Source of the DNA: Rhynchobatus australiae
Taxonomy: Eukaryota
Direction: 5' to 3'
Length of the DNA stretch: 64,000 nt
NCBI GenBank assembly: GCA_034780895.1
Contig: JAUZTB010000068.1
Location: 26,823,555-26,887,554, forward strand
Below the pieces are notes generated by a model that was given only the letters and a program-made list of their open reading frames with translations, made no database searches and was not told the origin of the DNA. The position numbers and the translations under genes were made by a program. Shown one piece after another: positions 159-58,635 of this stretch; the stretch's first letter is position 1, and each line of letters begins with the position of its first letter.

Positions 159-528
159 AGACGCAAGACACTGCCGATGCTGTAATTTGGAGCAAGAAGC
201 AAACTGCTGGAGGAACTCAACAGGTCAAGCAGCAGGGAAACAAAGGACTGCAGATGCTGGAGTCCAGATAAGAAACATGATGATGCCGGAGGAACTCAGC
301 AAGCCAGGCAGCATCCGTGGAGAAAAGCAGGCGGTCAACGTTTCAGGTCAGGACCCTTCTTCAGGACACTACTTTTCTCCACTGGCCTGCTGAGTTCCTC
401 CAGCATCATCGGGTCAAGCAGCATCTGTGGAGACAAAGGAATTGTTGAAGGTTCTGAACTGTCAACAGTTCCTTTGCCACCTCAGATGCTGCTGGACCTG
501 CTGAGTTCCTCCAGCAGTTTGTTTTTTT
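159..528. mobile_element. Nested pair of palindromic Penelope-like pLTR inserts
   Basis: Inverted arms (ctgctggaggaactca / tgagttcctccagcag). Inner element 235-411 is flanked by ggtcaagcagca at 223-234 and 412-423; outer element is flanked by ataggc(c/t)gg at 150-158 and 531-539. Confidence 0.75.
334..367 (-). ncRNA. Minimal type I hammerhead ribozyme motif (Penelope-associated)
   Basis: Minus strand reads GUC CUGAAGA A GGGUC CU GACCU GAAAC GUU GAC: CUGANGA and GAAA core, stem II hairpin, GUH triplet, short stem I GUC/GAC. Confidence 0.7.
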
Positions 529-1224
529 GGATAGGCTGGGACTATTTTCCCTGGAACGGAGGAGGCTGAGGGGTGACCTAACAGAACTTTGTAAAATTAT
601 GAGGGGGTAGATCATCACAGTCTTTTTCCAAGGATAGTAAAGTCTAAAACCAGAGGGGTAAGGTTCAAGGTGAGAGGGGAAAGATTTAAAGGGGATCCAA
701 GGGGAAAGTTTTTCACACAGAGGGCTCTGGGTATGTGGAGCGAGTGGCCAGAGGGAGTGGTAGAGATGCGCACAATTACATTTCAGTCAGTCTTGTGGCA
801 CAGAAATGGGGCCTTCAGCCCTTGATGTACGTTTAGATGGATGCATGGATGGGAAAGGTTTAGAGGCACATGGGACAAATGCAGGGAAATGGNNNNNNNN
901 NNNNNNNNNNNNNNNNNNNNNNNNNNNNNNNNNNNNNNNNNNNNNNNNNNNNNNNNNNNNNNNNNNNNNNNNNNNNNNNNNNNNNNNNNNNNNNNNNNNN
1001 NNNNNNNNNNNNNNNNNNNNNNNNNNNNNNNNNNNNNNNNNNNNNNNNNNNNNNNNNNNNNNNNNNNNNNNNAGAGTGCATTGTGGTGTGACATGGAATT
1101 TAAGTTTAAAAGTGTAGAACGATTATAGTGAGGGTAATGAGTAGATCTGTAGAGAGCAGCTTGCAACGAGTAGCTACGCTCCGGTGCCATCTCCCAATTT
1201 ACCCCCATGTTCCAGATCAATTGC

Positions 1225-1580
1225 CCAGCTTGCAGGCTGTGGTCACCTTGCTGCTCCCTCTCATTCACATCGGCAACAAGAACCTCACACCTGCTGAATA
1301 AGTGAGGGTCCCACAATGCCGCCTGGATCCCATTTCTGGCTCATGCAGACACATCCTCTTATCTTTCCTATCTGACCAGTTCTATGGTACTTAATCAAAG
1401 GGATGTGACTGATTCTGGGAACAAAGTATTCCCTCTCATGATGCATCACTGTGTCTGAATCTTGGACTCCAGCTCATCAACTCTGAGCCAAAGTTCCTCA
1501 CACTGCAGGTACATGCCGCTGATGTGGTTCCTATGAACCTAATGGTTTCCTTCAGCTCTCACATACCACAGCAGCAATGT
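1225..1580 (-). mobile_element. CR1 ORF1 N-terminal remnant (zinc-finger/leucine-zipper region)
   Basis: Minus translation gives CCGM*EL..., NHISGMYLQCEELWLRVDELESKIQT and LFSRCEVL (cf. the LSNRFEVL motif). Confidence 0.7.
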
Positions 1581-3044
1581 ATCATCATGCCTATCTTAAA
1601 GTATTTAATTCAATTTAATCAGTTATTTAATAATATCATTGTTGCCCTAATCTCACTGAAGTCCCTCAGTCAGTGAAATTCACACTGTGGATACTGAACT
1701 CAAAGGGTACTGTGCTGAAACATTCATGTATGAATCAAAATGACTGAAGTGAGGTCCAAGAGTGTATTGCATTGCCTTGCGTGCCCTGCACATATCCTGG
1801 CTTCTCCTTGTGTCTGGGCAACACAGAGAACTGAAAGGAAAATTGCGGACTTGGTTCAACTCAATTTCCCTTCTTTCCATTCTGTTTTAGTTTTCATTGA
1901 AACTGAATCACAATAGTGCACAAAACAATCAAATACCCAGTGACTTTGGAAAAAGGTTTCTATTATGTTACTCCTACAATACCTCACTGGAAACTGCTTG
2001 AACGAAACACAAAATATGCTGCTGTTTATTTGTTTTAAAAAGCTGAACAATAACATTTGGTTCTATTTGTTTCTTCAGCAGTCTTGCAACCTAGACAGCA
2101 TGTTGGACACACACCATGAAATACCAGTGTAAACAAAGATTAGCATCTGAACAGAATTTACTTACATAAGTGTTGGTAACTAAACAGATTGTTTAGCAGT
2201 GTTGTATTGGACACATACAGTTTCAATTGGCACACTTATTCATGGATATAAAGCAGAAATAATATGGATAAAAATATTCCTCTCTGACCCAGATCATTTT
2301 AACATTTTCATTATGAACATTTTTCTTAAGAGAACATGAGTTGTGTTTTAGATTTATTGTCTCTGTATTTCCGTTCATTGTATCCTTAAACATTGTGTTG
2401 CTTTGAAAGATCATAATATTATTTTAGTCCATGAATAACAAATGCAGTTTGTTGACTTTGTAATTTAAATCTTGAGTGGAATAAAATATTGCTTAGTTAC
2501 AGATATAATAAGAAGTGCAGTAGAGTTGATTTCATCTTGATGATGAGGTTCTGAAGTCAATTATTTCCTTTATTTGTGCCGTAAGTGTTAAATATCTGAT
2601 TATTTAAATTTCCACTCGAACTCTAATTCCTCTGATGGGGACAGCAATGAATGATCTGATTTGAACTGGCCTGTTGCTGTGGAATGTTGCCAGATCTCGA
2701 GTAACTCTAGATCTTATCGTATTCACTCTACATGAGCTTCTTTTGATATTGATTTGTTTTTGAACTTGTGGTTATAAGGGTTAGGTTAATTGATTGCATG
2801 TATTTCAAGTTATGAATGAAGTGCTTTAATCACTGTGGCACAAGAAGGGATCTGAAAATGCAAAGAACGTACATGGATTGATTCTGAGTTTCAATAAGAT
2901 ATGAGGGGAAATTCACTTTAACTTGATAGACTTCACTGAGGGAATTACATAAAATTCTGGTACTTCTCTTCTGGAAAGATACATCTTTCGGAGGGGATAG
3001 CAAAACAGATACACTAGGATTATGAGGTCATCCAGCCATCCAAC

Positions 3045-3200
3045 AATGACAGAAAATGCTGGTGTAACAGCAAGTCAAGTGGCATCTGTGGAAAGAAAAA
3101 GTCAACATTTCACATCTTCAACAGTTCTTTCCCCAGATGCTGCCTGACCTGCTGAGATTTTTCCAGCATTTTCTGTTTTTATTTCTGATTTCCAGCTCCT
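3045..3200. mobile_element. Palindromic Penelope-like pLTR relic
   Basis: Inverted arms acagaaaatgctgg...gcatctg / cagatgctgcc...ccagcattttctgt. Confidence 0.65.
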
Positions 3201-3258
3201 AACATTTGTCTCCCTATCTACTGTAGCAAGTCGCATAGATTGTCATGTGTTCCCTTGT

Positions 3259-3617
3259 GTCATGGAGACAGAGGGAGATACAGCACGAAAACAGACCCTT
3301 CAGCCCACCAAGTCCATGCTGACCATTAACCACTCACTTACATTCATCCTACGACAATCCCAATTTCCCTACATTGTATCAATTCCCCCCAGATTATCCT
3401 ACTCACCTACACACCAGGGGAACTTCACAGAGGCCAATTAAACTACTAACTCGCATATCTTTGGCACATTGGAGAAAACTAGAGCACACGGGGGAAACCC
3501 ACAAGATCACAGGAAGAACACGCAAATTCCACACAGACAGCACCCGAGGTCAGGATTGAACCCCAGTCTTTGACACTGTGAGGCAGCAGCTTTACTTGCT
3601 GTGTCACTGTGCCGCCC
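3259..3617 (-). mobile_element. HE1-like V-SINE (tRNA head, V-domain, CR1-type tail)
   Basis: Reverse complement starts gggcggcacagtgacacagc, has a B-box ggttcaatcc, the V-domain tgtgtggaatttgc...gtgggtttcc and a CR1-like tail. Confidence 0.9.
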
Positions 3618-3704
3618 AACACAAAAATATAAGGGGTCACTTGTTTAGCCACTCAAGGTCATTGAAAGTTCAGCTGGAGTGATACAGGCTGAATAGAACC
3701 AGAG

Positions 3705-4512
3705 AATTCAGTTTGGTCGCCCCATTATAGGAAGGACGTGGAGGCTCTGGAGAGGGTGCAGAAGAGTTTTACCAGGGTGCTGCCTGGCTTAGAGGGCAGG
3801 TGCTCTAAGGAGAGGTTGGACAATCGTGGGTTGTTTTCTCTAGTGGCGGAGGCTGAGGGGAGACCTGTTGGAAGTTTAAAAATTTATGAGTGGCACAGAC
3901 AGATTAGACAGTCGGTATCTTTTTCCCAGGGTCGAAACGTCTAATACTAGAGCACATGAATTTAAAGTGAGAAGGGGAAGGTTCAAAGGAGATGTGCGGG
4001 ACAAGCTTTTTTACACAGAGAGTGGTGGGTGCCTGGAGTGTGCTGCCAAGGGTGGTGGTTGAGGTAGATACAATAGGGGTGTTTAACAGGCTCTGAGAGA
4101 AGCACATGAATATTGCAGAGAATGGAGGGGTATGGGGAATGTGCAGGAAGAAGCAATTAGGTGTCATTAGCTTAATGTAACTGCCCTGTGTACTGAATTG
4201 ACCTGTATGAATGGTATGCAAACAAGTTTTTCACTGTGCCTCCGGTACAAGTGACAATAATAAACCAATAGCAATACCAGTACCAATTAATTTGGCCCAA
4301 TATCATGGGCTGAAGGACCTGTTCCTGTGCTGTANNNNNNNNNNNNNNNNNNNNNNNNNNNNNNNNNNNNNNNNNNNNNNNNNNNNNNNNNNNNNNNNNN
4401 NNNNNNNNNNNNNNNNNNNNNNNNNNNNNNNNNNAATTTGGCCCAATATCATGGGCTGAAGGACCTGTTCCTGTGCTGTATTGTTCTATGTTCTGTGTTC
4501 TATATTCTATAT
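3705..4512 (+). mobile_element. CR1 LINE 3' fragment with (TTCTAT)-type tail; contains an inserted LINE tail and a gap
   Basis: ORF 3738-3944 EALERVQKSFTRVLPGLEG; tail ttctatgttctgtgttctatattctat. Confidence 0.9.
4175..4288 (+). mobile_element. LINE 3' tail (same family as 1-88) inserted in a CR1 3'UTR
   Basis: Similar to 1-88; ends aataaaccaatagcaataccagtaccaat. Confidence 0.65.
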
Positions 4513-5515
4513 AAAGCTTTGCATTGCATTAAACTGTAAGAATGATGCACAAGCCATAATCTATTAAACACAAAGAATAGAAAAAAAATAACCAAGGTAG
4601 GATTGTGAAACCTATGGGAGCTACTCAGGAAGGGTTTGGTTCTGTCTGGTTACAGATGCAAAGCAGAATCAGGTCTGGTTAGTACTTGGGTAAGTAACAG
4701 CAACTTTGGGATTGACTTTGATGTCGAACGAAGTAAAGGAACAAAATATTTTTTGATCGCCTGTTTCTGAGCCAGCACACATGCACAAAATGACAACAAC
4801 TGTAATAAATATTTCAAGGAATATTCAGCATAAATGCAACTGTTGAGGTCATGAATTGATTACTATTACTGATCTCTGCATGTTATTGGAGCTCTATTTG
4901 AAAAGTTGATTAGTTTTCTCTCCACCAAAGTATTGGCTTCACATGCAATCATATTGAAGTTCCCTTTAGTTTCTTGCATAAGAGCTCATTTTTCTCCTCC
5001 TGAAGGCAGTGACTCATGCCAGTGATGAGTTCTGTGAGTGTCAACAATCCTGTTATATCAGCCAAGTAGTCATGGCGTTTGAATGAGCCCAGGCTGTGAG
5101 TAGTTGCAGGCACTTGATCATAATCTGATGTGGGAGGGCTGGGGAGGGGGGGGAACTTGCCTGGATGGCTGTTGTGGTGGAGAATGGGGGAGGAACGGGG
5201 AGACAGCTCCAGGGAAGGGAGCTCAGGATTATTTCTCACTGTCTCCACACCTGACCTTTTCTAGCAGAACTCTCTGATACTAATTATGAGTCAGGCTATT
5301 GGCTGATGATTCTTCGTATTGGACAGAACAGTTAAGATCACCCAACTGTGTAAACAGGGATCAAATCTGAGAATTTGTATACCTCTGTATTTGTATTTCC
5401 AACCAAAGACAGGTAGGGATATAGGCAGATAAGCAGATCTTAATAGACACAAACTGAGAGGTCATCTAGTTTTACTTGATGAAGCAAACAAGCTGGATGA
5501 CGAGACTTTAAGAAA

Positions 5516-5633
5516 CAAACAATCTGCCAGAAGAACTCAGCGGATCAAGTAGCATCCATGGGAGGAAAGATGTTGTCAATGTTTCAGGTTGAAAACCCAC
5601 ATTAGGACATCTGCAGTCTCTTGTGTCTCCATT
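5516..5633 (-). mobile_element. Penelope-like pLTR insert with degenerate hammerhead core
   Basis: Flanked by the 13-bp direct repeat agactttaagaaa (5503-5515, 5634-5646); minus strand gtcctaatgtgggttttcaacctgaaacattgac. Confidence 0.65.
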
Positions 5634-7076
5634 AGACTTTAAGAAAGGCGCCTAGAAATTCATCACCAATTAAAGAGTAAATATTATTAGTATTTTGATT
5701 GTTATACATCTATTAAAGCTGCTGTATCATAGTGTTGACACATCACACACTTCTGAAACTCATTCAACTGAAGCTACTGATCAGGGATGAATTACTTGGC
5801 AAATGTATTTAAATGCTGTAAATTATTGATGTTTAAATGATGTTAATAGATTCATAGTGGTCAAAATACTAATAATTTTTACTCTTTGATTAAAATCATT
5901 GTCCAGTGGTAACATTAACTCTGACTGTGTTTTATGCATTCAATCTTTGTTTCATAATAAATTATTATTCCAAGTAATTAATCAGTTATTTAATACAAAA
6001 TTCAGCAGTTTGTGATCAAACAGCCCTGATTTTTTTAATGTTGTGGTTATTACCAACGGAACATATCAGTAAACTCTCAGTACTCAGACTAATCATCGAG
6101 TATCAATCTTGATGATTAAACTCTTGCAGCATTCAGTAAGAAAACAGGGTACTTATTCTGCAGAAGTATATTTCTATTTGTATCTATGTGCGATTCAAAG
6201 CAGATAAAAACATTTTAAATGACTTTCTTGTGGATATTAATTTGTTTTTGTGAAATTTTCCATGCTTGCTGACTTAATTCATCAATTTGGCAAGTTAACG
6301 TTTAGGATCAACAACAAGTAAAATATTTAAAAATAAATTATCACTCTCTCCTTGGTTCTTGAAATTGTGGTTTCCTTTATTGATATGGTGGCTTGTAAAA
6401 ATGTTATTTCTCCACCAGAGTCTGGAAATCTTGGCTACATATGTCACCCCTGTTATTTCCTGGTAACTAGCTGATTATTATCTGATAACATTCAGGATAC
6501 AAATAAAACAGTTATTAGTCATTAAACATGAGTGAAATGATGCATCAATGACACAGTGTCTGAAATTGTGTGAGTCACATTATCTGAACCCCCTGAGATC
6601 ACTGCCTTAGGAGTACATGCTGCTATTCATTACTCTTCACCTAATTAAAGGAAAAGGATTTCTAGCCATGTAATTCATCTTACTTGAGCTCCAATTTTCA
6701 TTGCAGCAGATCTGACTGTGTAACGGCTGACTGAAGCTCAATAATTAGTGAAATATCTGGTTCCACTTTCACGCTCAGAGCTACAAAATATAGAGGTAAT
6801 AACTAACAGAGTTACATTCGCTGGTACATTCACACTATTTCACAAAAGACTATTTTCCATTGAAATATCTGCACTTAAATACCACATTTTCTCCAGTATT
6901 TGAATTGTCCTAAAGTGACCCTGAAATTAAACCACCAGCACAGCAGAGTTACTGAGGGAGCACACTGTTAAATTTATTGCACTGGTTTATCTTTTCATGC
7001 TGTCAGATAGCCATGTGGCTGTAATTAAGATGACAAGCTGACCCCAGAAGTTTGTATGATACTTGTACTGCATGGT

Positions 7077-7086
7077 TGATTGACAG
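7077..7086 (+). promoter_or_regulatory. Canonical PBX-MEIS/PREP decamer TGATTGACAG
   Basis: Exact motif match in unique AT-rich sequence, with CTGTCA and TAATTA nearby; function untested. Confidence 0.4.
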
Positions 7087-7471
7087 CTCAGTACGGGAAT
7101 TGTTTGTTCATACGTCTGACTGATAATTTTAAAAGGTGCAATAAACTTTGCACCCCTATAGCTGATACATTGGATTCTGTAAATATGAAAAATCATTATG
7201 GATTTGGAAGAGGCGTGTAGAAATGCAATTTTGAAACTTTGCCAGTCCATTAGCTCAGTAATGCATGGTTATTTTTTTCTGGGTGGGAGTTACTGCCTTT
7301 CGTCATAAGTAATGGAAGATCTACCAAGCACTGCATGCTATCATTTCCTCAATATCTCTGTATTAACCTCCAAAGTTCACAATACAAAATTATGTATGCT
7401 TTTGATTAGTTTTTATAACATGAACCAATTAGAAGATTGTATGTGTATACAGTATATGTTGTACATTATGC

Positions 7472-7493
7472 AAACACACACACATGTGCACGC

Positions 7494-7538
<45 letters not shown>

Positions 7539-7545
7539 AACACAT
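7472..7545. repeat. (CA)n microsatellite
   Basis: Visible directly in the sequence. Confidence 0.97.
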
Positions 7546-7812
7546 ATATTTTGTATAAGCTGCACTATTCAATATAAGGAATCACTGTCCTTCAATCAAG
7601 TAATCCCTGGATTTAAATGGAGACGAGACTTACTGACTGACAGTACGCCTGGATTCCATGTGGAGTATGTTGAGTTCACCAGCGGATCCCAGTCTTTCTG
7701 GGATTACTCAGCATTACATTGAGGAAATGCCTTGAGGAAGACCTGGTGTATGTTCAACAACCACATTCATTTAAATGGTGATTCTTGCCAGTGGAATGGG
7801 AAGGTTAATATT

Positions 7813-8141
7813 CACAGTCATACAGCACGGAAACAGGCTATTTGTCCCACCGTCCACACCAAACATAAAGCACTAAACCTACATTGATTCCATTATATTC
7901 TCCCCATGTTCTCATCAGTTCCTTCCAGATCCTATCACACAGCTCGTAGGGGCAATTTACTGTGGGCAATTAACCTACCATCTTTGGGAAGTGAGGGGGA
8001 AACTGAAGGATTTGGGGAAAACTCATGTGATCACATGGAGAACGTGTAAACTCCACACAGACAGTGCCAGAGGCTGGGATCAAACAGGGGGGTCTGGAGC
8101 TGTGAGGCTGCAGTTGTACCAGTTGAGCCACTCTGCCATCC
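7813..8141 (-). mobile_element. HE1-like V-SINE
   Basis: Contains aaactccacacagacagtgccagaggctgggatcaaac; CR1-type tail at the left end. Confidence 0.85.
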
Positions 8142-8724
8142 TACTTTTGCTGACTTCAGTACAACAGTTTCCATCTGTTTTAATGTGTCTTAATTAACTT
8201 TCTCTTTTTTTCTAAGAAACCTTACTTTTTATACAACATTGTTATTGGTTTATAAAAGTTTCTGAATGTCAGAGACATCTACAAGCTGTTAAAAAGACTT
8301 TACAGCTTTGGCCACCCCCAGCTTTGCCCCTTGTCAAAGCCTGTCAAGGAATTCCAGGGATGGGGCCTCAGCGGTACCACAGGTCACATGTTGTTGTGAT
8401 TCTTGTTGCCCGGTGGGATACTGAGGGGTGCAGAGAGGATGGATTTACAGGTCCAGCCCAGGGAAGTGCAGGTGTAAGGGATGGATAGCAGTGACATTAG
8501 CTCATTTAAACACTGTGCAAGAAGTGAATTTGTTTCACTCCATCACCAGAAAATCTGTGGTGATGCTCAAGATAGTTTAAAACAATATAGATGCCAAAAG
8601 CTTTCTTAAAAACATTGTGGTATGACAGGAATAAAACCACAAAATGCTATGAAATGAGGACAGTTAGAGTGTGAGAACACAGACAATGGAACGTAAGAGC
8701 TGCCAATGGACAATGGAATGTACG

Positions 8725-9085
8725 AGATTGAGGGGTGATCTGACAGACGTATATAAGGTCATGAGGGGCATAGACAGGTTAACAGCACACAGTCTTTTTC
8801 CCAGGGAAAGACTGTTAAAAACAAGAGGGCATTAGTTTAAGTTCAGAGGCAAGAGATTTCAAAGGGACATCAGAGGAGCTTCTTCACACAAAAGGTGGGG
8901 TGTGTTTGGAATGTGCTGCCAGAAATAGTGGTTGAAGCGAGCACATTAGCAACATTTGAAAGCTAAGAGGTTTAGAGGGCTCAGGGCCAGACATGCGCAG
9001 ATGGGACTAGCTCACTGGGCAACACAGTCGGCATGGATGAGTTGGGCCAAAGGGCCTGTTTCTATGCTGTATGTCTATGACTCTA
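8725..9085 (+). mobile_element. CR1 LINE 3' fragment
   Basis: RLRGDLTDVYKVMRGIDR motif; tail gggccaaagggcctgtttctatgctgtatgtctatgactcta. Confidence 0.9.
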
Positions 9086-9224: not shown

Positions 9225-9465
9225 CATTGCTTATCCCCAGGGCAACCTTGGTTTCACCCTTCTAGAGATAATCCTTTAGTCTTATCCATTCCTCCCTGCA
9301 GCTTGATACTAACTTGCTTTCTCTCCTCCCCAGTTCTGATGAAGGGTCTTTGACCTGACACATGAACTCTATTTATTTTTGCTCAGATGATGCCTGCCTT
9401 GCTGAGTGTTTTCGGCACTTTCCGTTTTTACTTCAGATTTCCAGCATTTGCAGATTTTTGATTTT
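9225..9465 (+). mobile_element. Penelope-like pLTR with mutated hammerhead core at 9336-9361
   Basis: ctgatgaagggtctttgacctgacac (GAAA changed to GACA), followed by cagatgatgcctgccttgctgag...ttccagcatttgcag. Confidence 0.7.
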
Positions 9466-9519: not shown

Positions 9520-9907
9520 AGTCACAGAGTTAAAGAGTTATACAGCATGGAAAGAGCAATGCCGACTGAGCTAATCCCATTTGCCTGCATTTGGCAGATA
9601 TTCCTAAACACCTCTCCTATCCATGTACCTGTCCAAGTGCTTTTTAAATGCTGCAATTGTACTTGCCTCCACCGCTTCCTCTGGCAGTTGGTTCCGTGTA
9701 CCCACCATCCTGTGTGTGAAAAAGCTTCACAAGTCCCCTTTAAGTTTATCCCCTTTGACTTTAAGTCTATACACTCCAGAAAAAGGTTATGACCATTCAG
9801 CTTATCTACACCCCTTATAATTTTATAGACCTCCAGAAGGTTACCACCCAGACTCCTACACTCCAGGGAACAAAGCCCCAGCCTGTCCAGTCTCCCCTTA
9901 TAACTCA
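9520..9907 (-). mobile_element. CR1 LINE 3' fragment
   Basis: ORF 9522-9908 SYKGRLDRLGLCSLECRSLGGNLLEVYKIIRG. Confidence 0.9.
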
Positions 9908-9979
9908 TGGCCTAAATATTGTCTGTGTCACTTTTAATTTAACTTCATGGATATATTGGTCCTGACAACATACGTGGAA

Positions 9980-18274: not shown

Positions 18275-18461
18275 GTATGAATGGTAGGACTCTTGGCAGT
18301 GTGGAGGATCAGTGGGATCTTGGGGTCCGAGTCCATAGGACTCTCAAAAGCAGCTGCACAGGTTGACTCTGTGGTTAAGAAGGAATATGGTGTATTGTCC
18401 TTCATCAATCGGGGAATTGAATTTAGGAGCCGAGAGGTATTGTTGCAGCTGTATAGGTCCC
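18275..18461 (+). mobile_element. CR1 RT fragment
   Basis: KAAAQVDSVVKKEYGVLSFINRGIEFRSREVLLQLYRS. Confidence 0.92.
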
Positions 18462-18769
18462 NNNNNNNNNNNNNNNNNNNNNNNNNNNNNNNNNNNNNNN
18501 NNNNNNNNNNNNNNNNNNNNNNNNNNNNNNNNNNNNNNNNNNNNNNNNNNNNNNNNNNNNNTTGTTCCTTGAAATTGCAAAATTCAAAATTATTAGATAT
18601 CTTTTGTTTCATTTATTCTTGTAACTGCATTCCCAGGAAGGTCAGTGGATATTACCCATCCCTAACTGGCCATTATAAAGTGGTGGGTCTCAAAGGGCAG
18701 CAGATCACTGTCAAAAGAACTCCCACAGTTACTGGCATGTAGGGAATGTCAGGATTTTGTTATCCAAGT

Positions 18770-25800: not shown

Positions 25801-28020
25801 AAATACTTCCAGATGTATGTGGTTTAATAGAAATTTTGATGAAACTAAATATCAGATCCATCACGTGACTCTGAAGTTTTATTTCAGTTGTATACACAGA
25901 CAGATTATTTTAGCTACTTATTTTCTTCCGTATCTAGCAGCCTTTTATTAAATACAAATATATTTCTCTTACCGCTATGCCTCCAATCACCGCTCTTCAA
26001 TGTATGGCCAAGGTCTCTACAATTTTAACTGCAGCTACAATTAATACTGCTTTCTGATCAACTGATAGGAGGTGTGTTTCAGGGAGGGCAGTGGGAGGTC
26101 GTATGATGAAGCTGTTTTGGTTTAACTTTACCTCTAACCCATCCTTCCCCAATCAACCCTGCACTGAGATGGATTGCTGTGCTTCAACACAGTGCTCCAC
26201 CTAGCAGCCATGCCAAGAATTGCCAGGGTTCATTCAGTACGAATGGTCAGGGCTGAATGTTACACCAGCCAGGAATTCAGCCTCACAAATCTTATGTGTT
26301 GGAAATTAAAATTAGTATTTCATAAGCTGATAATACAGCCATGTACTTCTACAACAACGATAGATCATTTATTTTAAAATGTGGGTAAATGTCAATATTA
26401 TGAACAGAAAAAGATGTGAATCTTGAGAAATATAACATTTANNNNNNNNNNNNNNNNNNNNNNNNNNNNNNNNNNNNNNNNNNNNNNNNNNNNNNNNNNN
26501 NNNNNNNNNNNNNNNNNNNNNNNNNNNNNNNNNNNNNNNNNNNNNNNNNNNNNNNNNNNNNNNNNNNNNNNNNNNNNNNNNNNNNNNNNNNNNNNNNNNN
26601 NNNNNNNNNNNNNNNNNNNNNNNNNNNNNNNNNNNNNNNNNNNNNNNNNNNNNNNNNNNNACTCAAAGTATGCAGGTGAAAATTGATCTGCTTCAAACTA
26701 TTGTGGGGTCTGTGCATGAACAAACTGCAGAGGTGTTGACATACTGAGTATAAAATTTTTCAAATTAATCAGCAGTTGAAAAGTCACAGTTACATTTTAA
26801 TCCCCATGCAGTAATATGCGCGAGCCATATGCACATTTTGGACTTGGTCTGCAAGTATGAATTAATTTTTAAACCACCAATAAGTGTGGTGAATTTCTAT
26901 CTTTATAGATTGTGTGGTAATATATTTGATTAGATACCATANNNNNNNNNNNNNNNNNNNNNNNNNNNNNNNNNNNNNNNNNNNNNNNNNNNNNNNNNNN
27001 NNNNNNNNNNNNNNNNNNNNNNNNNNNNNNNNNNNNNNNNNNNNNNNNNNNNNNNNNNNNNNNNNNNNNNNNNNNNNNNNNNNNNNNNNNNNNNNNNNNN
27101 NNTTAGTGATGTTCCTAAATTATACATGCACCTTTCTTTCCAAAGTGGTCTTGATGATTGTTGCACTTGTTGAAATGAATTATAGTCTACACATTTATAA
27201 TTTTTCTAGGTGGAGGAAGGAAGATCCCATTCACGAGTTATATTATAGAATCAAATAAGTATCAGGCGAATACCCCATCAGTTATATGCTTGGGTTTTAT
27301 GGAATAATTGCGTACCTTCTTGTTTTGGGCGAATGCAGGAGGATATCCGCTGAAATCCCATCAGCAAAAGCCATCATCTCTTCACTGCAACCCTAAAAGC
27401 TGGGATACCTATACTGCCTTAGTATAAACTTACCTTGAAGATCCCCAACAAAATGTGCAGGACTCTTCTTTAAATGGAGGCAGTTGTATTTAGGTGATTC
27501 GTAGTATTATCTTTTATTTACATTGGCAGACAATCCATGAGTTAGCTTCTTTATTAGTGTAATAATTATCTGATCATTTATTTGCAAATACAAATCAATT
27601 TGAACTCAAAGTAGATTTTCATAATTAAGGGAATCCAGGACATAAAAAGTCTTCCATAACAAATATAGGTGGGAAAATAATATTCAGTGTGAATAAAATT
27701 GTGAAAGTGGTCAGGTAAGAGTTTTCATGAGGAAAACTCTGAGTGGGAATTGAGTGAATGAAGTCGAGGAAATGGCAAGTTTTATTTTCTGAAAGTAATT
27801 AACAGTTCAGATAAGTACTGAGATAATGAAGGAAAAGAGAGAATGTATTTAATTTTATATATGGAATTTCTTACAGTCAATGTTGTCATAACCGCCTGTA
27901 ATGCACTGGTATATATTAGTATAAAACAGCTTAATATGGCAGCTCTGTAACAAATCCAATTAAACCCGTTTTTAACCTGATTCACTGGGCATGAAAGCCC
28001 CCTGGATTGAGCAAAGTACT

Positions 28021-28090
28021 GGTTTTACATTCCACCTAATTTTACTCTCTGTGACTTCACTGAAAGTAAAATTAGATGGAGTGTAAATCC
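28021..28090. repeat. Imperfect palindrome / MITE-like hairpin
   Basis: 28-bp arms ggttttacattccacctaattttactct and aaagtaaaattagatggagtgtaaatcc (4 mismatches) around ctgtgacttcactg. Confidence 0.85.
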
Positions 28091-30139
28091 AACATTGCAC
28101 TTAATCTTTTCGGTTTTCTGATGAGCAAGTTGGATGTTCATTGTCCTCATATGCCAGATGGAACATAATCACGGTTTATAATTCACGGTTATAAAGAGTT
28201 CATCTGCTTGCTGGCTTTGCACATTGTAGGGCAACACGCTTTTGTATCAATGGTTTTTAACCTGTTGGGTTCCTACTCTCAGTCACACTACCATAGAGAG
28301 GTGCTAAACTAAGCTGGCCTGCTTCCCCTATTGGGAGGGGAACAGTTGAAGGGAAGAAGTGGCTCTGGCACATTTTAGAGTGAAATCTGTAGAAGGGAGT
28401 AATAACGTTGAAGACAATGTGGTACCTCACAAACCCTCAGCCATAAATTAGTTTCTCTCAAGCTCTTACAGAAGTAACCCTGCCTCTAATAACAATATCC
28501 AAAGTCCCATTACTGTAGTGCTGTTTGTTTACTTCACTCTCCTTCGCCAGATTTTGGAATTTTTTTTCATTCTTGCATCTTTGGTTATCGCTGTGCTACA
28601 CGCTTTGTTACAGGGCTATTTTACTTCCGAGCTCAGGAACTCTCCTTTCCACTGAACTTGGAAAATATTATTAAAAATTAAAANNNNNNNNNNNNNNNNN
28701 NNNNNNNNNNNNNNNNNNNNNNNNNNNNNNNNNNNNNNNNNNNNNNNNNNNNNNNNNNNNNNNNNNNNNNNNNNNNNNNNNNNNNNNNNNNNNNNNNNNN
28801 NNNNNNNNNNNNNNNNNNNNNNNNNNNNNNNNNNNNNNNNNNNNNNNNNNNNNNNNNNNNNNNNNNNNNNNNNNNNNNNNNNNNNNNNNNNNNNNNNNNN
28901 NNNNNNNNNNNNNNNNNNNNNNNNNNNNNNNNNNNNNNNNNNNNNNNNNNNNNNNNNNNNNNNNNNNNNNNNNNNNNNNNNNNNNNNNNNNNNNNNNNNN
29001 NNNNNNNNNNNNNNNNNNNNNNNNNNNNNNNNNNNNNNNNNNNNNNNNNNNNNNNNNNNNNNNNNNNNNNNNNNNNNNNNNNNNNNNNNNNNNAGCTTGA
29101 CAGCAACCATGGCAGCATGGCTGTAATGAAAAATATGGCTTAATTTTACTCAGCTGTTCGAGTGTGTGCAGAGACACCGGTACTCAGCACTCCAGAGATA
29201 TGAATGGGCAAAAGCCACTGAGGATGTGGAGCATCTGAGAACTATAGATGGGATTTTCTCCAACAGAATCTTCTGTCTAATTCATCTCACACAATAAAGC
29301 TTCTTAATAACAACTTAGGTCATTTTGTGCTTCAAGAAATCCAGTTTTTGATTCAGACTCCGTGCTCTCAAAACACTGATTATAGCTCAGAGCCCACAGC
29401 ATCTCGCTTTGAATAAACATCCAGCTCTCAGTCCAAGCTGAACACATTTAGTCACACCTCTTTACATTTTCATGCCAATCAAGTGGTCAAAGGGAAACCC
29501 TGGACTGGATCAGCGTCTATGCGTTTTACATTGGTATTTCTACAGCTAAATATTGTCACAGATGCGCATGGTTTCTCCAACACACTGATACGCTATTCCT
29601 TTTTAAATTACTTTATGTCTCTTTAGATCTGTTCTGCAAATAAAAGTTTAACAACAAGACCATAAGTGAGTGGGCATGGCTTAGTCTGAAACTTAAGATA
29701 GATCTCTAAGTTATCACTCAACTGTTTAAGTAGTTGTACTATGGAGATACACACAGGAACAGTATCACTCAATGGCTATGCTTTTATTTAATCACTCTCA
29801 AGTTGTAGAGTTTTCGGATTACACCTACATCCCGTAGCATGGGCATTGCAGCCCATATATGATCAAGAATTTAGTCAATCATTCCTCTGTATGAGAACAT
29901 GAACAAAGAATTATTTCATGCAACAGAGGATCACAGCTAATCCCATTTTACATTCTAGCTTCTCAGACATCAGTTTGTTTCAAATGAAAAATTTCAGTAG
30001 AAAGTGCATCACTTTTGGCGTGATGCTGTCACATGAAAATAACCTTTGGTGTGGCATCGAACTGTATGATTTGAATTAAAGTCCAATATTTGTAAAAAGA
30101 ACACCCAGATGAAGCAGGTGGAATTGCCATAGAGAGGCC

Positions 30140-32869: not shown

Positions 32870-34100
32870 GCACAGAAGATCCCATGGTTAATGGCTCAAA
32901 CTCCTCCTCTTCCTTCTTTCTCTTCCTCCTTTTCCTCTTCCGTTCAGGGTTATATCTGCACGATGACCAGGTTGTAGAGGATACAAGGAAACGCCACCTA
33001 GTAAGACACCTTCATTACATCGCATGGAGCAAGCCCCATCCAAATGGGGCCAGGCCTGTATAGCATTTCTTCCGCAATTCTATGGTTTCTGTGCTATGTT
33101 TAATGTTGCCACATGGCTTTCACTGTAGAGAACTCTGCTGTTTCTCTTGTATCCCTGAAGACGGAGGCTCGAGAAGCCTCCAACAGCCACCTCCTAATAA
33201 GACTGACTTGAAGACAGTGGGCACAGTTGAATACAACTGCAGAGATGAATAGTGGACGTTTCCCAGGTGACTCCTATTTACAATTAGAATCTTTTGGTTC
33301 TATTAGGCATTCGTGGATTGAAACCTCTTGCAGGTCTGGTAAGTTTGCATGTTGTTTGATGAAGCCCCTAACAAAAGTTGGATGCAGTCTATCATCTCCT
33401 GCACCATAGGAAAACCCCTCATGTCAGCATAGCCCAGCACTGGCTCTCTGTACCCAGGAAGAAGGGCATGAAATCACCTGTCCTCGAGTAGAGAGCTCTC
33501 TTTCACCTCCCTCATGCAGTGGTGAGTTGTAGTCGAAGCAATTTCTACTAATTTCTCCAACTTCAGCTTGAAGGCAGGCACGGAGGTGCAGTGGTTAGCA
33601 TAACACTATTACAGCACCGGCAACCCAGGTTCAATTCCGGCTGCTGTCTGTAAGGAGTTTGTAAGTTCTCCCTGTATCTGTGTGGGTTTCTTCCAGGTGC
33701 TCCGGTTTCCTTTCACATTCCAAGGAAGTTGTTAGGAAGTTGTGGGCATGCTACGTTGGTGCTGGAAGCATGGGGACACTTGCGGGCTGCCCTCAGAACA
33801 CTCTACGCAAAAGATGCATTTCACTGTGTGTTTCAATGTACTTGTGACTAATAAAGATATCGTATCTTATCTTGTATAAGAAGAGGCAAAGGCAAAAGCA
33901 ATTATGCAACATTGTGACTTGACTGCCATAGTGTGAGTGGGTGATGTACAGCTCCATGCTGAAAGCACATGACAACCCCTCAACTCCTTTCTGGAGAACC
34001 TAACAGTGAAACTTTGTGGGACGTGCTCAGGGCCTGTGCTCTCCACCCATTCTGGCAGGCTGGGCCCCTGTGGCCAGGGCCTTATGCTCTTGCCCCTTCT
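32870..34100 (-). mobile_element. PIF/Harbinger (HARBI1-like) transposase relic, interrupted by a SINE
   Basis: GFPMVQEMIDC...YQTCKRFQSTNA (cf. GFPxVQGAIDCTH...NRKGFHSLNVQ); CILYNLVI followed by an acidic E-rich tail. Confidence 0.75.
33575..33875 (+). mobile_element. V-SINE with (TCTTA)n non-CR1 tail
   Basis: Same family as 10783-11086; ends gtgactaataaagatatcgtatcttatctt. Confidence 0.9.
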
Positions 34101-34197
34101 TGCACCTTTTATAGTTCTTCAGAGCCTCTTCACTTCAGCTCAGTCACGGCGGACTGTATGCAGACAGCAGCACTGGTACTTCTTCCAATGGTTTACT

Positions 34198-34878
34198 CAG
34201 TGGCTGCACAGATTGATAGGGTGGCAATGAAGACGTATGGTATACTTGCCTTCATTAGTCAAGACGTTGAATTCAAGAGTCAGGAAGTTATGTTGCAACT
34301 TTACAAAACTCTGGTTAGGCTGCATTTGGAGTATTGCATTCAATTCTGCTTGCCCCATTATAGGGAGGATGTGGAAGCTTTGGAGAGGGTACAGAAGCAG
34401 TTTACCAGGATGTTGTCTGGATTAGAGGGGAAGTTGGACAAACTTGTGTTGTTTTCTCTGGAGCGTCGGAGTCTGAGTGGAGGCCTGATAAAAGGTTATA
34501 AAACTATGAGAGGCATAGATAGAGTAGACAGCTGGTATCTTATTCCCAGGGTCAAAATGTCTAATGCTAGAGGCTCTCACATCTAAGGTGAGAGGGGTTA
34601 AGTTCAAAGGGGATGTGCGGGGCAAGATTTTCACACAGAGGGTGGTGGGTACCTGGAATGTGCAGTCAAGCGNNNNNNNNNNNNNNNNNNNNNNNNNNNN
34701 NNNNNNNNNNNNNNNNNNNNNNNNNNNNNNNNNNNNNNNNNNNNNNNNNNNNNNNNNNNNNNNNNNNNNNNNNNNNNNNNNNNNNNNNNNNNNNNNNNNN
34801 NNNNNNNNNNNNNNNNNNNNNNNNNNNNNNNNNNNNNNNNNNNNNNNNNNNNNNNNNNNNTCTATGTTCTATGTTCTA
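34198..34878 (+). mobile_element. CR1 ORF2 C-terminal fragment with tail across a gap
   Basis: LYKTLVRLHLEYCIQFCLPHYREDVEALERVQKQFTRML; tctatgttctatgttcta tail. Confidence 0.93.
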
Positions 34879-42859: not shown

Positions 42860-42985
42860 GTAGTATCCATACCTCCCCCAGTTCTGATGAAGGATCTTAA
42901 ATCTGAAATATTCACTCAGCGTCTCAGCCTTTCCTTCCACAGATGCTGCCTCACCAGCTGGGTGTTTGCGATATTTGTTTCATGT
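42860..42985 (+). mobile_element. Penelope-like pLTR with degenerate hammerhead core at 42884
   Basis: ctgatgaaggatcttaaatctgaaat...ccacagatgctgcc. Confidence 0.6.
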
Positions 42986-51559: not shown

Positions 51560-51675
51560 AACTGTTCTGATGAATGGTCATTGAACTAAAATATTAACAT
51601 TGTTTCTCCAGTCACAGATTCTGCCTTCTCATTTTCAGTTTTTATTTCAGACGTAGCACCTGAGTATTTTTTTTG
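51560..51675 (+). mobile_element. Penelope-like pLTR, degenerate hammerhead core at 51567
   Basis: ttctgatgaatggtcattgaactaaaatattaac...cacagattctgcc. Confidence 0.55.
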
Positions 51676-54469: not shown

Positions 54470-54797
54470 CCTTCTATCTCTCATTTTTTTGCCCTCTCTC
54501 TCTGTCTGTCTCCATCTGCTACTCTCTCCCCAATCCAACCCCCTCTCTCCCCTCCTGTACCTCTCACCACCCTCTTTCACCCCCCCTCATTCCACCAATC
54601 AACTCAGTCCCTGTCTTACCACTTCCCCTCTCCTCTTTATACTGGCCATTTCCCTTCTCTACTCTCAGTCCTGATGCAGGGTTTCAACCCAAAACGTTGA
54701 CAGTTCCTTTCCCCCCACAGATGCTGCTCGACCGTTAAGTTCCTCCAGCAGATTGTTTGTTGCTCCAGATTCCAGCATCTGCAGTCTCTTGTGTCTA
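54470..54797 (+). mobile_element. Penelope-like pLTR (pyrimidine-rich arm plus mutated hammerhead core at 54666-54703)
   Basis: cagtc ctgatgc agggtttcaaccc aaaac gtt gacag, then cagatgctgctcgacc...ttccagcatctgcagtctcttgtgtct. Confidence 0.75.
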
Positions 54798-56597: not shown

Positions 56598-56696
56598 CAG
56601 TCCAGATGAAGGGTCTTGACCCGAAACATTGACTATCTATTTCCCTCCACAGATTCTGTCTAACCCACTGAGTTCCTCCAGCATTTTGTTTGTTGC
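56598..56696 (+). mobile_element. Penelope-like pLTR insert with near-intact hammerhead fold
   Basis: cagtc cagatga agggtcttgaccc gaaac att gact; flanked by agcaattaaacccag and agcaatttagcccag. Confidence 0.75.
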
Positions 56697-58465: not shown

Positions 58466-58635
58466 GAGACACAAGAGACTACAGAATGCTGGAATCTGGA
58501 GAAATAATCTGCTGGTGATGTCCTGATGCAGGGTTTTGACCCGAAACATTGATAATACTTTTCCTTCCAAGAGATGCTGTTCAACCCACTGAATTATTCT
58601 AGAAGATTACCTGTTGCTTCACAATTTCTAGTCTG
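58466..58635. mobile_element. Palindromic Penelope-like insert with mutated hammerhead core at 58523
   Basis: Inverted arm gagacacaagagactacagaatgctggaatctggag, then gtc ctgatgc agggttttgaccc gaaac att gat. Confidence 0.7.

Follow-up and report, generated by a model that had tools for sequence, protein, structure and literature searches.

The hammerhead study of Lunse et al. 2017 reportedly covers roughly 150,000 variants. The motif described below resembles the dimer hammerheads of Penelope-like elements (PLEs) in that study, which have a diminished stem III and cleave as dimers (as cited in the available part of PMC6765202). PLE hammerheads as published (PMC4209133) consist of CUGANGA followed by an extra H, a helix II that starts with G, GAAA, a palindromic and loopless helix III, an NUH triplet and a short helix I; they are found mostly as solo copies from truncated elements, with some opposite-strand pairs, and all of these traits recur here. 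The published dimers cut weakly (PMC4209133). Fish Neptune, Poseidon and Xena elements are included in that set, whereas cartilaginous fish are absent from it (Fig. S3, Table S1).

Three further systems are close. In the Poseidon element PAc of Anolis (Frangieh et al. 2024, PMC11167929, available part), as is likely here, the hammerhead lies near the 5' end of the RNA and the template is uncut RNA, and, as here, two 3' end points (tail) lie 30-40 nt apart; the elements described here differ from what that part reports in having a Neptune-type linker, natural core-variant lineages and no intact ORF found, and the evidence is genomic rather than in vitro. Endonuclease-bearing Neptune and Nematis elements (Craig et al. 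2021, PMC8557442, available part) share the order RT-CX2-5CxxC-GIY-YIG, 5' truncation, an adjacent inverted copy and a tail; the CX2-5CxxC linker is given there as the mark of Neptune elements, common to Nematis. The same text describes Naiads, which lack hammerheads, and already suggests that the hammerhead is dispensable. Unlike in Naiads, the motif is kept here, with one core letter altered in sister lineages of one genome. Non-LTR retrozymes (bioRxiv 10.64898/2026.07.22.740005, available part), with one chondrichthyan reported, also carry PLE-derived type I hammerheads, but in tandem arrays, whereas dispersed solo or inverted stumps are seen here. A literature search returned nothing on CUGAUGC or CAGAUGA cores or on PLE hammerheads of cartilaginous fish; it stopped short of Lunse 2017 and of the supplements of the retrozyme preprint, the latter of which may bear on novelty.

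Hammerhead copies in the window

The window is a stretch of 64,000 nucleotides from Rhynchobatus australiae (contig JAUZTB010000068.1, positions 26,823,555 to 26,887,554). A preliminary description had listed eight motif copies in it, and all eight are present within a few bases of the positions given there (Table 1). A family profile search returned 13 matches in the window and none when the window was reversed, and exact patterns matched 258, 104, 177 and 1059 times in the genome (the last for family K) with 0 matches for reversed-pattern controls; thus, the copies are not due to chance. An Rfam search of the window at E<=10 returned no hammerhead. CUGANGA with the extra H, GAAA and NUH are found in the 334-367 copy and in families A, K and O, and the loopless stem III with its ACGU palindrome, as first described, is present in that copy and in the family majorities. 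Stem II is also present, but had been read as GGGUC/GACCC; five copies have 4 bp and a 4-nt loop there, and the 5-bp/3-nt form is that of the older family O. All window copies are solo or inverted, with none of the tandem units of non-LTR retrozymes.

Table 1. Positions of hammerhead motifs and associated features in the window.
Feature	Position	Strand	Remarks
Family K hammerhead motif	334..367	-	Canonical core letters, GUU triplet, G10.1-C11.1 decayed to G-U
Family K insertion, 176 bp	235..410	-	Inverted 5'-truncated arm (368-410), then pLTR stump from hammerhead front to tail end (+133); predicted long fold-back
Target-site duplication, upstream copy	411..423	-	13 bp, 12/13 identical
Target-site duplication, downstream copy	222..234	-	
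Older head-to-head pLTR fold-back	160..527		No hammerhead core; C9-like by eye; the K copy is inserted into it
Old coreless pLTR fold-back	3048..3199		Absent from the earlier list
Decayed motif, family C9 by flank	5575..5608	-	Motif front is the stump start
Decayed motif, older family O	9333..9367	+	GUU/AAC stem I, longer stem II, GACA break
Decayed family O motif	42881..42915	+	
Strongly decayed family O motif	51564..51598	+	Under profile cut-off; confirmed by eye and alignment
Family C9 motif (CUGAUGC)	54668..54701	+	Loss of G12; 3' UTR reaches at least 55 nt upstream; tail as far as ~54800
Family U4A motif (CAGAUGA)	56600..56633	+	Stump ~56599-56696, 13-14 bp target duplication
Family C9 motif (CUGAUGC)	58520..58553	+	Decayed triplet; stump begins at motif front behind inverted arm

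The 334-367 copy reads, on the minus strand, GUC CUGAAGA A GGGU CCUG ACCU GAAA C GUU GAC. It had been presented as having an intact core, and the letters of CUGAAGA, GAAA and GUU are indeed canonical; however, the G10.1-C11.1 pair is now G-U. C is common at 11.1 in family K matches, and the change to U is likely to be CpG decay. The insertion that carries the copy is predicted to form a hairpin of -93.5 kcal/mol closed by the inverted arm, a fold-back that would tie stems I and II to a single molecule, in which stem III is unable to form. For the bare motif, the active dimer is predicted at -5.1 kcal/mol versus -18.3 kcal/mol for an inactive cofold. The copy is an ordinary and likely inert member of the published family.

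Other repeats are found in the same stretch. An AT-rich, near-perfect hairpin at 28020-28091 (region 27990-28100) matches a microRNA model at E=0.014, far below threshold, and is likely a small inverted-repeat element. Decayed reverse-transcriptase fragments at 9522-9911, 18281-18742 and 33963-34586 are presumably from a CR1-type LINE.

The carrier is a probable Neptune-type Penelope element

The motif had been attributed to the minimal type I hammerheads of PLE pLTRs, joined to RT and GIY-YIG, and this was borne out both by upstream walks and by loci picked by endonuclease. Walking upstream from genome copies, a C-rich UTR is followed by a GIY-YIG endonuclease that is preceded by C-x4-C-x2-C, with RT further upstream; the motif lies 240-710 nt behind the endonuclease stop in four families. 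When family A loci were picked by endonuclease DNA alone, the motif was found 302-477 nt after the GIY-YIG stop in 16/30, and most of the loci without it have N gaps or contig ends. Endonuclease remnants lie upstream in 4/20 family O loci, and in several loci a C9-type endonuclease is preceded by RT remnants. Protein relatives carry RT (PF00078) and GIY-YIG (PF01541) within one ORF, the best match being 66% to a bamboo shark protein. Pfam matches on the decayed copies themselves are weak (RVT_1 E=0.007, GIY-YIG E=0.15), and a PDB search with an RT fragment returned no relative. The C-x4-C-x2-C linker before GIY-YIG, seen in loci L008, L051 and others, is of the CX2-5CxxC form that marks Neptune and Nematis. 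Full-length elements, the check that had been proposed, were found in part: RT and GIY-YIG lie upstream of the motif, but 0 of 30 RT-picked loci have intact ORFs, the longest N-free frame being 434 aa.

An inverted arm is found near 42/72 stumps, and inverted copies also occur upstream of RT. The 3' ends are bimodal with peaks ~35 nt apart (about +95 and +133; 133 and 124 of 316 copies), although the upper peak coincides with the end of the reference used, past which nothing is shared. Comparison of 155 copies beyond +135 revealed no common sequence, and therefore no 5' pLTR-ORF junction was recovered. The 5' truncation, inverted copies and two 3' end points are standard PLE anatomy.

A 32-nt block at pLTR +53..+85 (e.g. 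window 283-314, minus strand) is conserved between all families like the hammerhead; it has an ATG start after a pyrimidine tract and AG, and is a candidate protein-binding site or ORF start.

Two core variants are fixed by lineage

Five lineages with the motif were distinguished. Families A, K and O have the canonical core, C9 has CUGAUGC and U4A has CAGAUGA; A, K, C9 and U4A are each distinguished by a separate endonuclease group and a separate 3' UTR. The core mutations noted earlier in copies other than 334-367 are real (e.g. GACA), but CAGAUGA and CUGAUGC are lineage states rather than private mutations, and the suggestion that CUGAUGC marks a subfamily proved right. Among loci picked by endonuclease, C is present at position 9 in 14/15 readable C9 copies (30 loci examined, query included; two further readable loci belong to family K) and A at position 4 in 16/18 readable U4A copies (30 examined, query included), with neither state in any of the 16 family A loci (query included). 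In flank-assigned, non-selected copies the C9 state is found in 25/28 and the U4A state in 14/16. In hand counts, the first 100 of 479 matches listed have a bimodal position 9 (A 64, C 33, G 3, T 0), A occupies position 4 in 33 among the first 100 of 355 matches listed, and ~19 of 43 position-chosen copies have CUGAUGC or CAGAUGA.

In an endonuclease tree of 63 rows, with a midpoint root and a bootstrap that had not converged (0.983), support is 100/99 for C9, 100/100 for K (5 endonuclease copies) and 99/95 for the U4A core clade, and K is the sister group of C9. As C9 and U4A fall in separate supported clades beside canonical lineages, the two core changes are likely, from the sequences, to have arisen separately from the canonical core. 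Both lineages keep both stems and GAAACGUC, one core letter aside. C9 differs from A at 2/34 motif sites and at 7/19 spacer sites. An alternative reading of CUGAUGCA keeps A9 and places a bulged C between G8 and A9. C9 and U4A are homologous variants and not members of the canonical PLE minimal hammerheads; what is new here is modest, namely that CUGAUGC and CAGAUGA are fixed by lineage, in clades of their own beside canonical lineages.

In family A, U4C is found in 9/45 flank-assigned and 3/16 endonuclease-picked copies, scattered in the endonuclease tree, and may mark a third core-variant sub-lineage.

The GUU triplet was considered as a CpG-decayed GUC. This holds for A, C9 and U4A but was rejected for K, where GUU is present in 99/100 rows among the matches listed (hand count) and is thus the master triplet. 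The greater number of exact K matches likely results from fewer CpGs rather than youth, as the end branches of the endonuclease tree are all ~0.1. Covariation in helices I and II consists of one family-level swap only, with 95.9% of cells paired, in motif-chosen sequences with few independent events.

Copy number and decay

The motif had been described as very high-copy, at one relic per 8 kb. Very high copy number is upheld, but the genome-wide density is lower, at 1 per 11-13 kb: position-chosen stretches totalling 440 kb contain 40 motif-spanning copies, and evenly spaced samples totalling 164 kb contain 13. Extrapolated to a genome of 2.23 Gb, this gives roughly 1e5 copies, versus 4,000-9,000 descriptor matches in PMC4209133, where methods differ. 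Decay was counted in 98 copies not chosen by motif, leaving out those with <82% flank identity. Divergence at non-CpG sites is 4.8% (37/767) in the core and 6.5% (184/2812) in the flank (p=0.09), and reaches 33% at CpG sites. Thus, after insertion the core decays about like the flank, and its excess conservation is not significant.

Direct motif pairs outside the window are rare. The most promising candidate for a natural dimer is L230/L231 (G000:C1:2828230-2828340), a direct tandem of two whole-core family K motifs, both with GUU, at a distance of 76 nt. At L066:4500-5146, an N gap separates two whole family A motifs that share a strand and are ~400 nt from each other; they follow an inverted arm and may be a partial tandem or an assembly duplicate. 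L219 has a perfect head-to-head motif duplication with a single central base.

Start points of the stumps and the likely template

The start falls at -3..+1 of helix I in 31 and at the cut site in 7 of 249 non-selected copies; starts also cluster at +2..+6 (21/249) and +37..+41 (16/249). The clearest cases place the target duplication 0-4 nt from the start; 5/58 stumps exceed the 99% null. An extra G before A+1 is found at 17/25 non-C junctions versus 22/77 control junctions, and in 8/12 among non-native bases without an inverted arm, whereas 0/141 copies that extend upstream have it. Genome-wide, G precedes A+1 in 48 among the first 100 of 299 matches listed (hand count), versus ~25-27% expected. 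However, in 24 non-extending loci, some of them already counted, G and A occur 11 times each, so that the excess is modest, and for some Gs an inverted arm was the template. For stumps starting with G, the base in front is G in 48, T in 39 and C in 13 of 100 listed rows (hand count); A-to-G change confounds this count, and it was left unused. In L1, full-length inserts are marked by an extra G that stems from reverse transcription of the cap (PMC11702581, available part). That stumps begin at the motif front, frequently preceded by an extra G, suggests that the template is capped, uncut RNA, although as a sign of cap copying the extra G is suggestive, not proven.

The motif front fits the initiator consensus YYANWYY in all four family majorities. 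An internal Inr promoter has been described in Penelope (PMC2377424). As the putative course of events, an initiator-like element (YYA+1GTCC) would start transcription one base before helix I, and the element's protein would prime reverse transcription internally at ~+95 or +133 and copy to the cap. This would yield stumps of 100-135 bp, 13-bp duplications and frequent inverted arms. Cleavage would not be needed, and U4A and A9C masters would spread like canonical ones because the template would be uncut.

The extra bases in front of A+1 are frequently TG in stumps such as L005, L123 and L212 (6/8 simple stumps). Counted from A+1, the 3' half of the motif (window 338-350, minus strand) resembles downstream core-promoter elements, presumably of the MTE/DPE consensus, which could explain why that half never changes.

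Alternative explanations

The window copies are probably 5'-truncated ends of Neptune-type Penelope elements with the known minimal hammerhead, 334-367 being likely an inert fold-back stump; they likely transposed from capped, uncut RNA, with cleavage likely dispensable. That two lineages spread with an altered core suggests that cutting is likely not needed for jumping. In the available part of PMC11167929, hammerhead mutants of PAc still insert in vitro and internal priming is shown. A broader reading, to which we hold only tentatively, is that in Neptune elements of cartilaginous fish the hammerhead is kept mainly as a start signal, the initiator overlapping helix I and the RNA beginning one base before it, and that catalysis was lost at least twice (U4A and A9C). 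The affected coding lineages would still have given rise to tens of thousands of copies, templated by capped, uncut RNA, and the PLE ribozyme would thus be dispensable. The main rival is protein-assisted weak activity, because all other core letters and both stems are kept. Under this rival, which we judge rather unlikely, all five lineages would have kept a working, protein-assisted dimer ribozyme that tolerates U4A and CUGAUGC (A9C or C bulge), with multimers cleaved at a stage of which insertions bear no trace. It would account for G5, A6, G8, G12, A13, A14 and U16.1 being the same in all family majorities, for the swap of the stem I closing pair from C-G to U-A in family O (33/45 U-A, 0 C-G; hand count), and for changes in K and O being confined to permitted sites (N7, H17). 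The conserved motif of C9 beside its diverged spacer would also fit a weaker ribozyme still under selection. Among core positions, U4 and A9 reportedly belong to the more tolerant ones (Ruffner 1990). Moreover, the PAc hammerhead cuts only with its protein (PMC11167929, available part), and a U4C viroid variant remains infective (PMC3088659). However, single mutants of the CUGA turn have low activity in a full scan (PMC9901934, available part), stumps keep the uncut 5' half, and either core is found in 0/56 published motifs (PMC4209133, Fig. S3), among which U3-A8 is the only core variant and whose descriptor would exclude both. As an alternative for C9, CUGAUGCA may be a new active natural core. 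The 5'-end evidence holds whether activity was dispensable or retained.

The motif-front starts could instead reflect a splice acceptor, as in the D. virilis Penelope intron, since a pyrimidine tract and CAG resembling a 3' splice site precede the motif in all families and the 3' end of the D. virilis intron maps to helix I (PMC4209133). This is improbable given that the stumps have no upstream exon in common, that the target duplication lies 0-4 nt from the motif in the clearest cases and that, before the AG, the pooled set has mostly G rather than A. Least probable is that 334-367 pairs with a second copy on the same transcript and so cleaves host pre-mRNA. The letters of its core are canonical, and by structural reasoning the cut strand of a double hammerhead would need only ACGUH and stem I, which would make broken-core copies possible substrates. 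However, 334-367 has G10.1-U11.1, its stem I is predicted to be locked by the fold-back with the inactive cofold favoured over the active dimer, the same-strand 5575 copy has no ACGU palindrome, and a single further whole copy (L169), in the opposite orientation, was detected within ~300 kb around the window. Nor is there a significant excess of core conservation after insertion, and Pfam identified no host exon in 300 of 369 repeat-free window frames (>=48 aa; two sub-threshold matches). A search for RNA sequences containing window 1100-9000 listed none, which bears neither way on expression. With 2/43 position-chosen copies whole, the earlier proposal that intact copies could cut host pre-mRNA is thus unsupported.

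Significance for Penelope elements

The role of the hammerhead for endonuclease-bearing Penelope elements is an open question in the available parts of PMC8557442 and PMC11167929. Sister lineages with and without the canonical core, in one genome and of similar age and success, make this role directly testable. If the variants cut, the list of natural hammerhead cores would grow, and around half of the copies here would have escaped descriptor searches. Should the variants be dead, cleavage would be dispensable in vivo, and the motif would be kept for another role, such as transcription start or protein binding.
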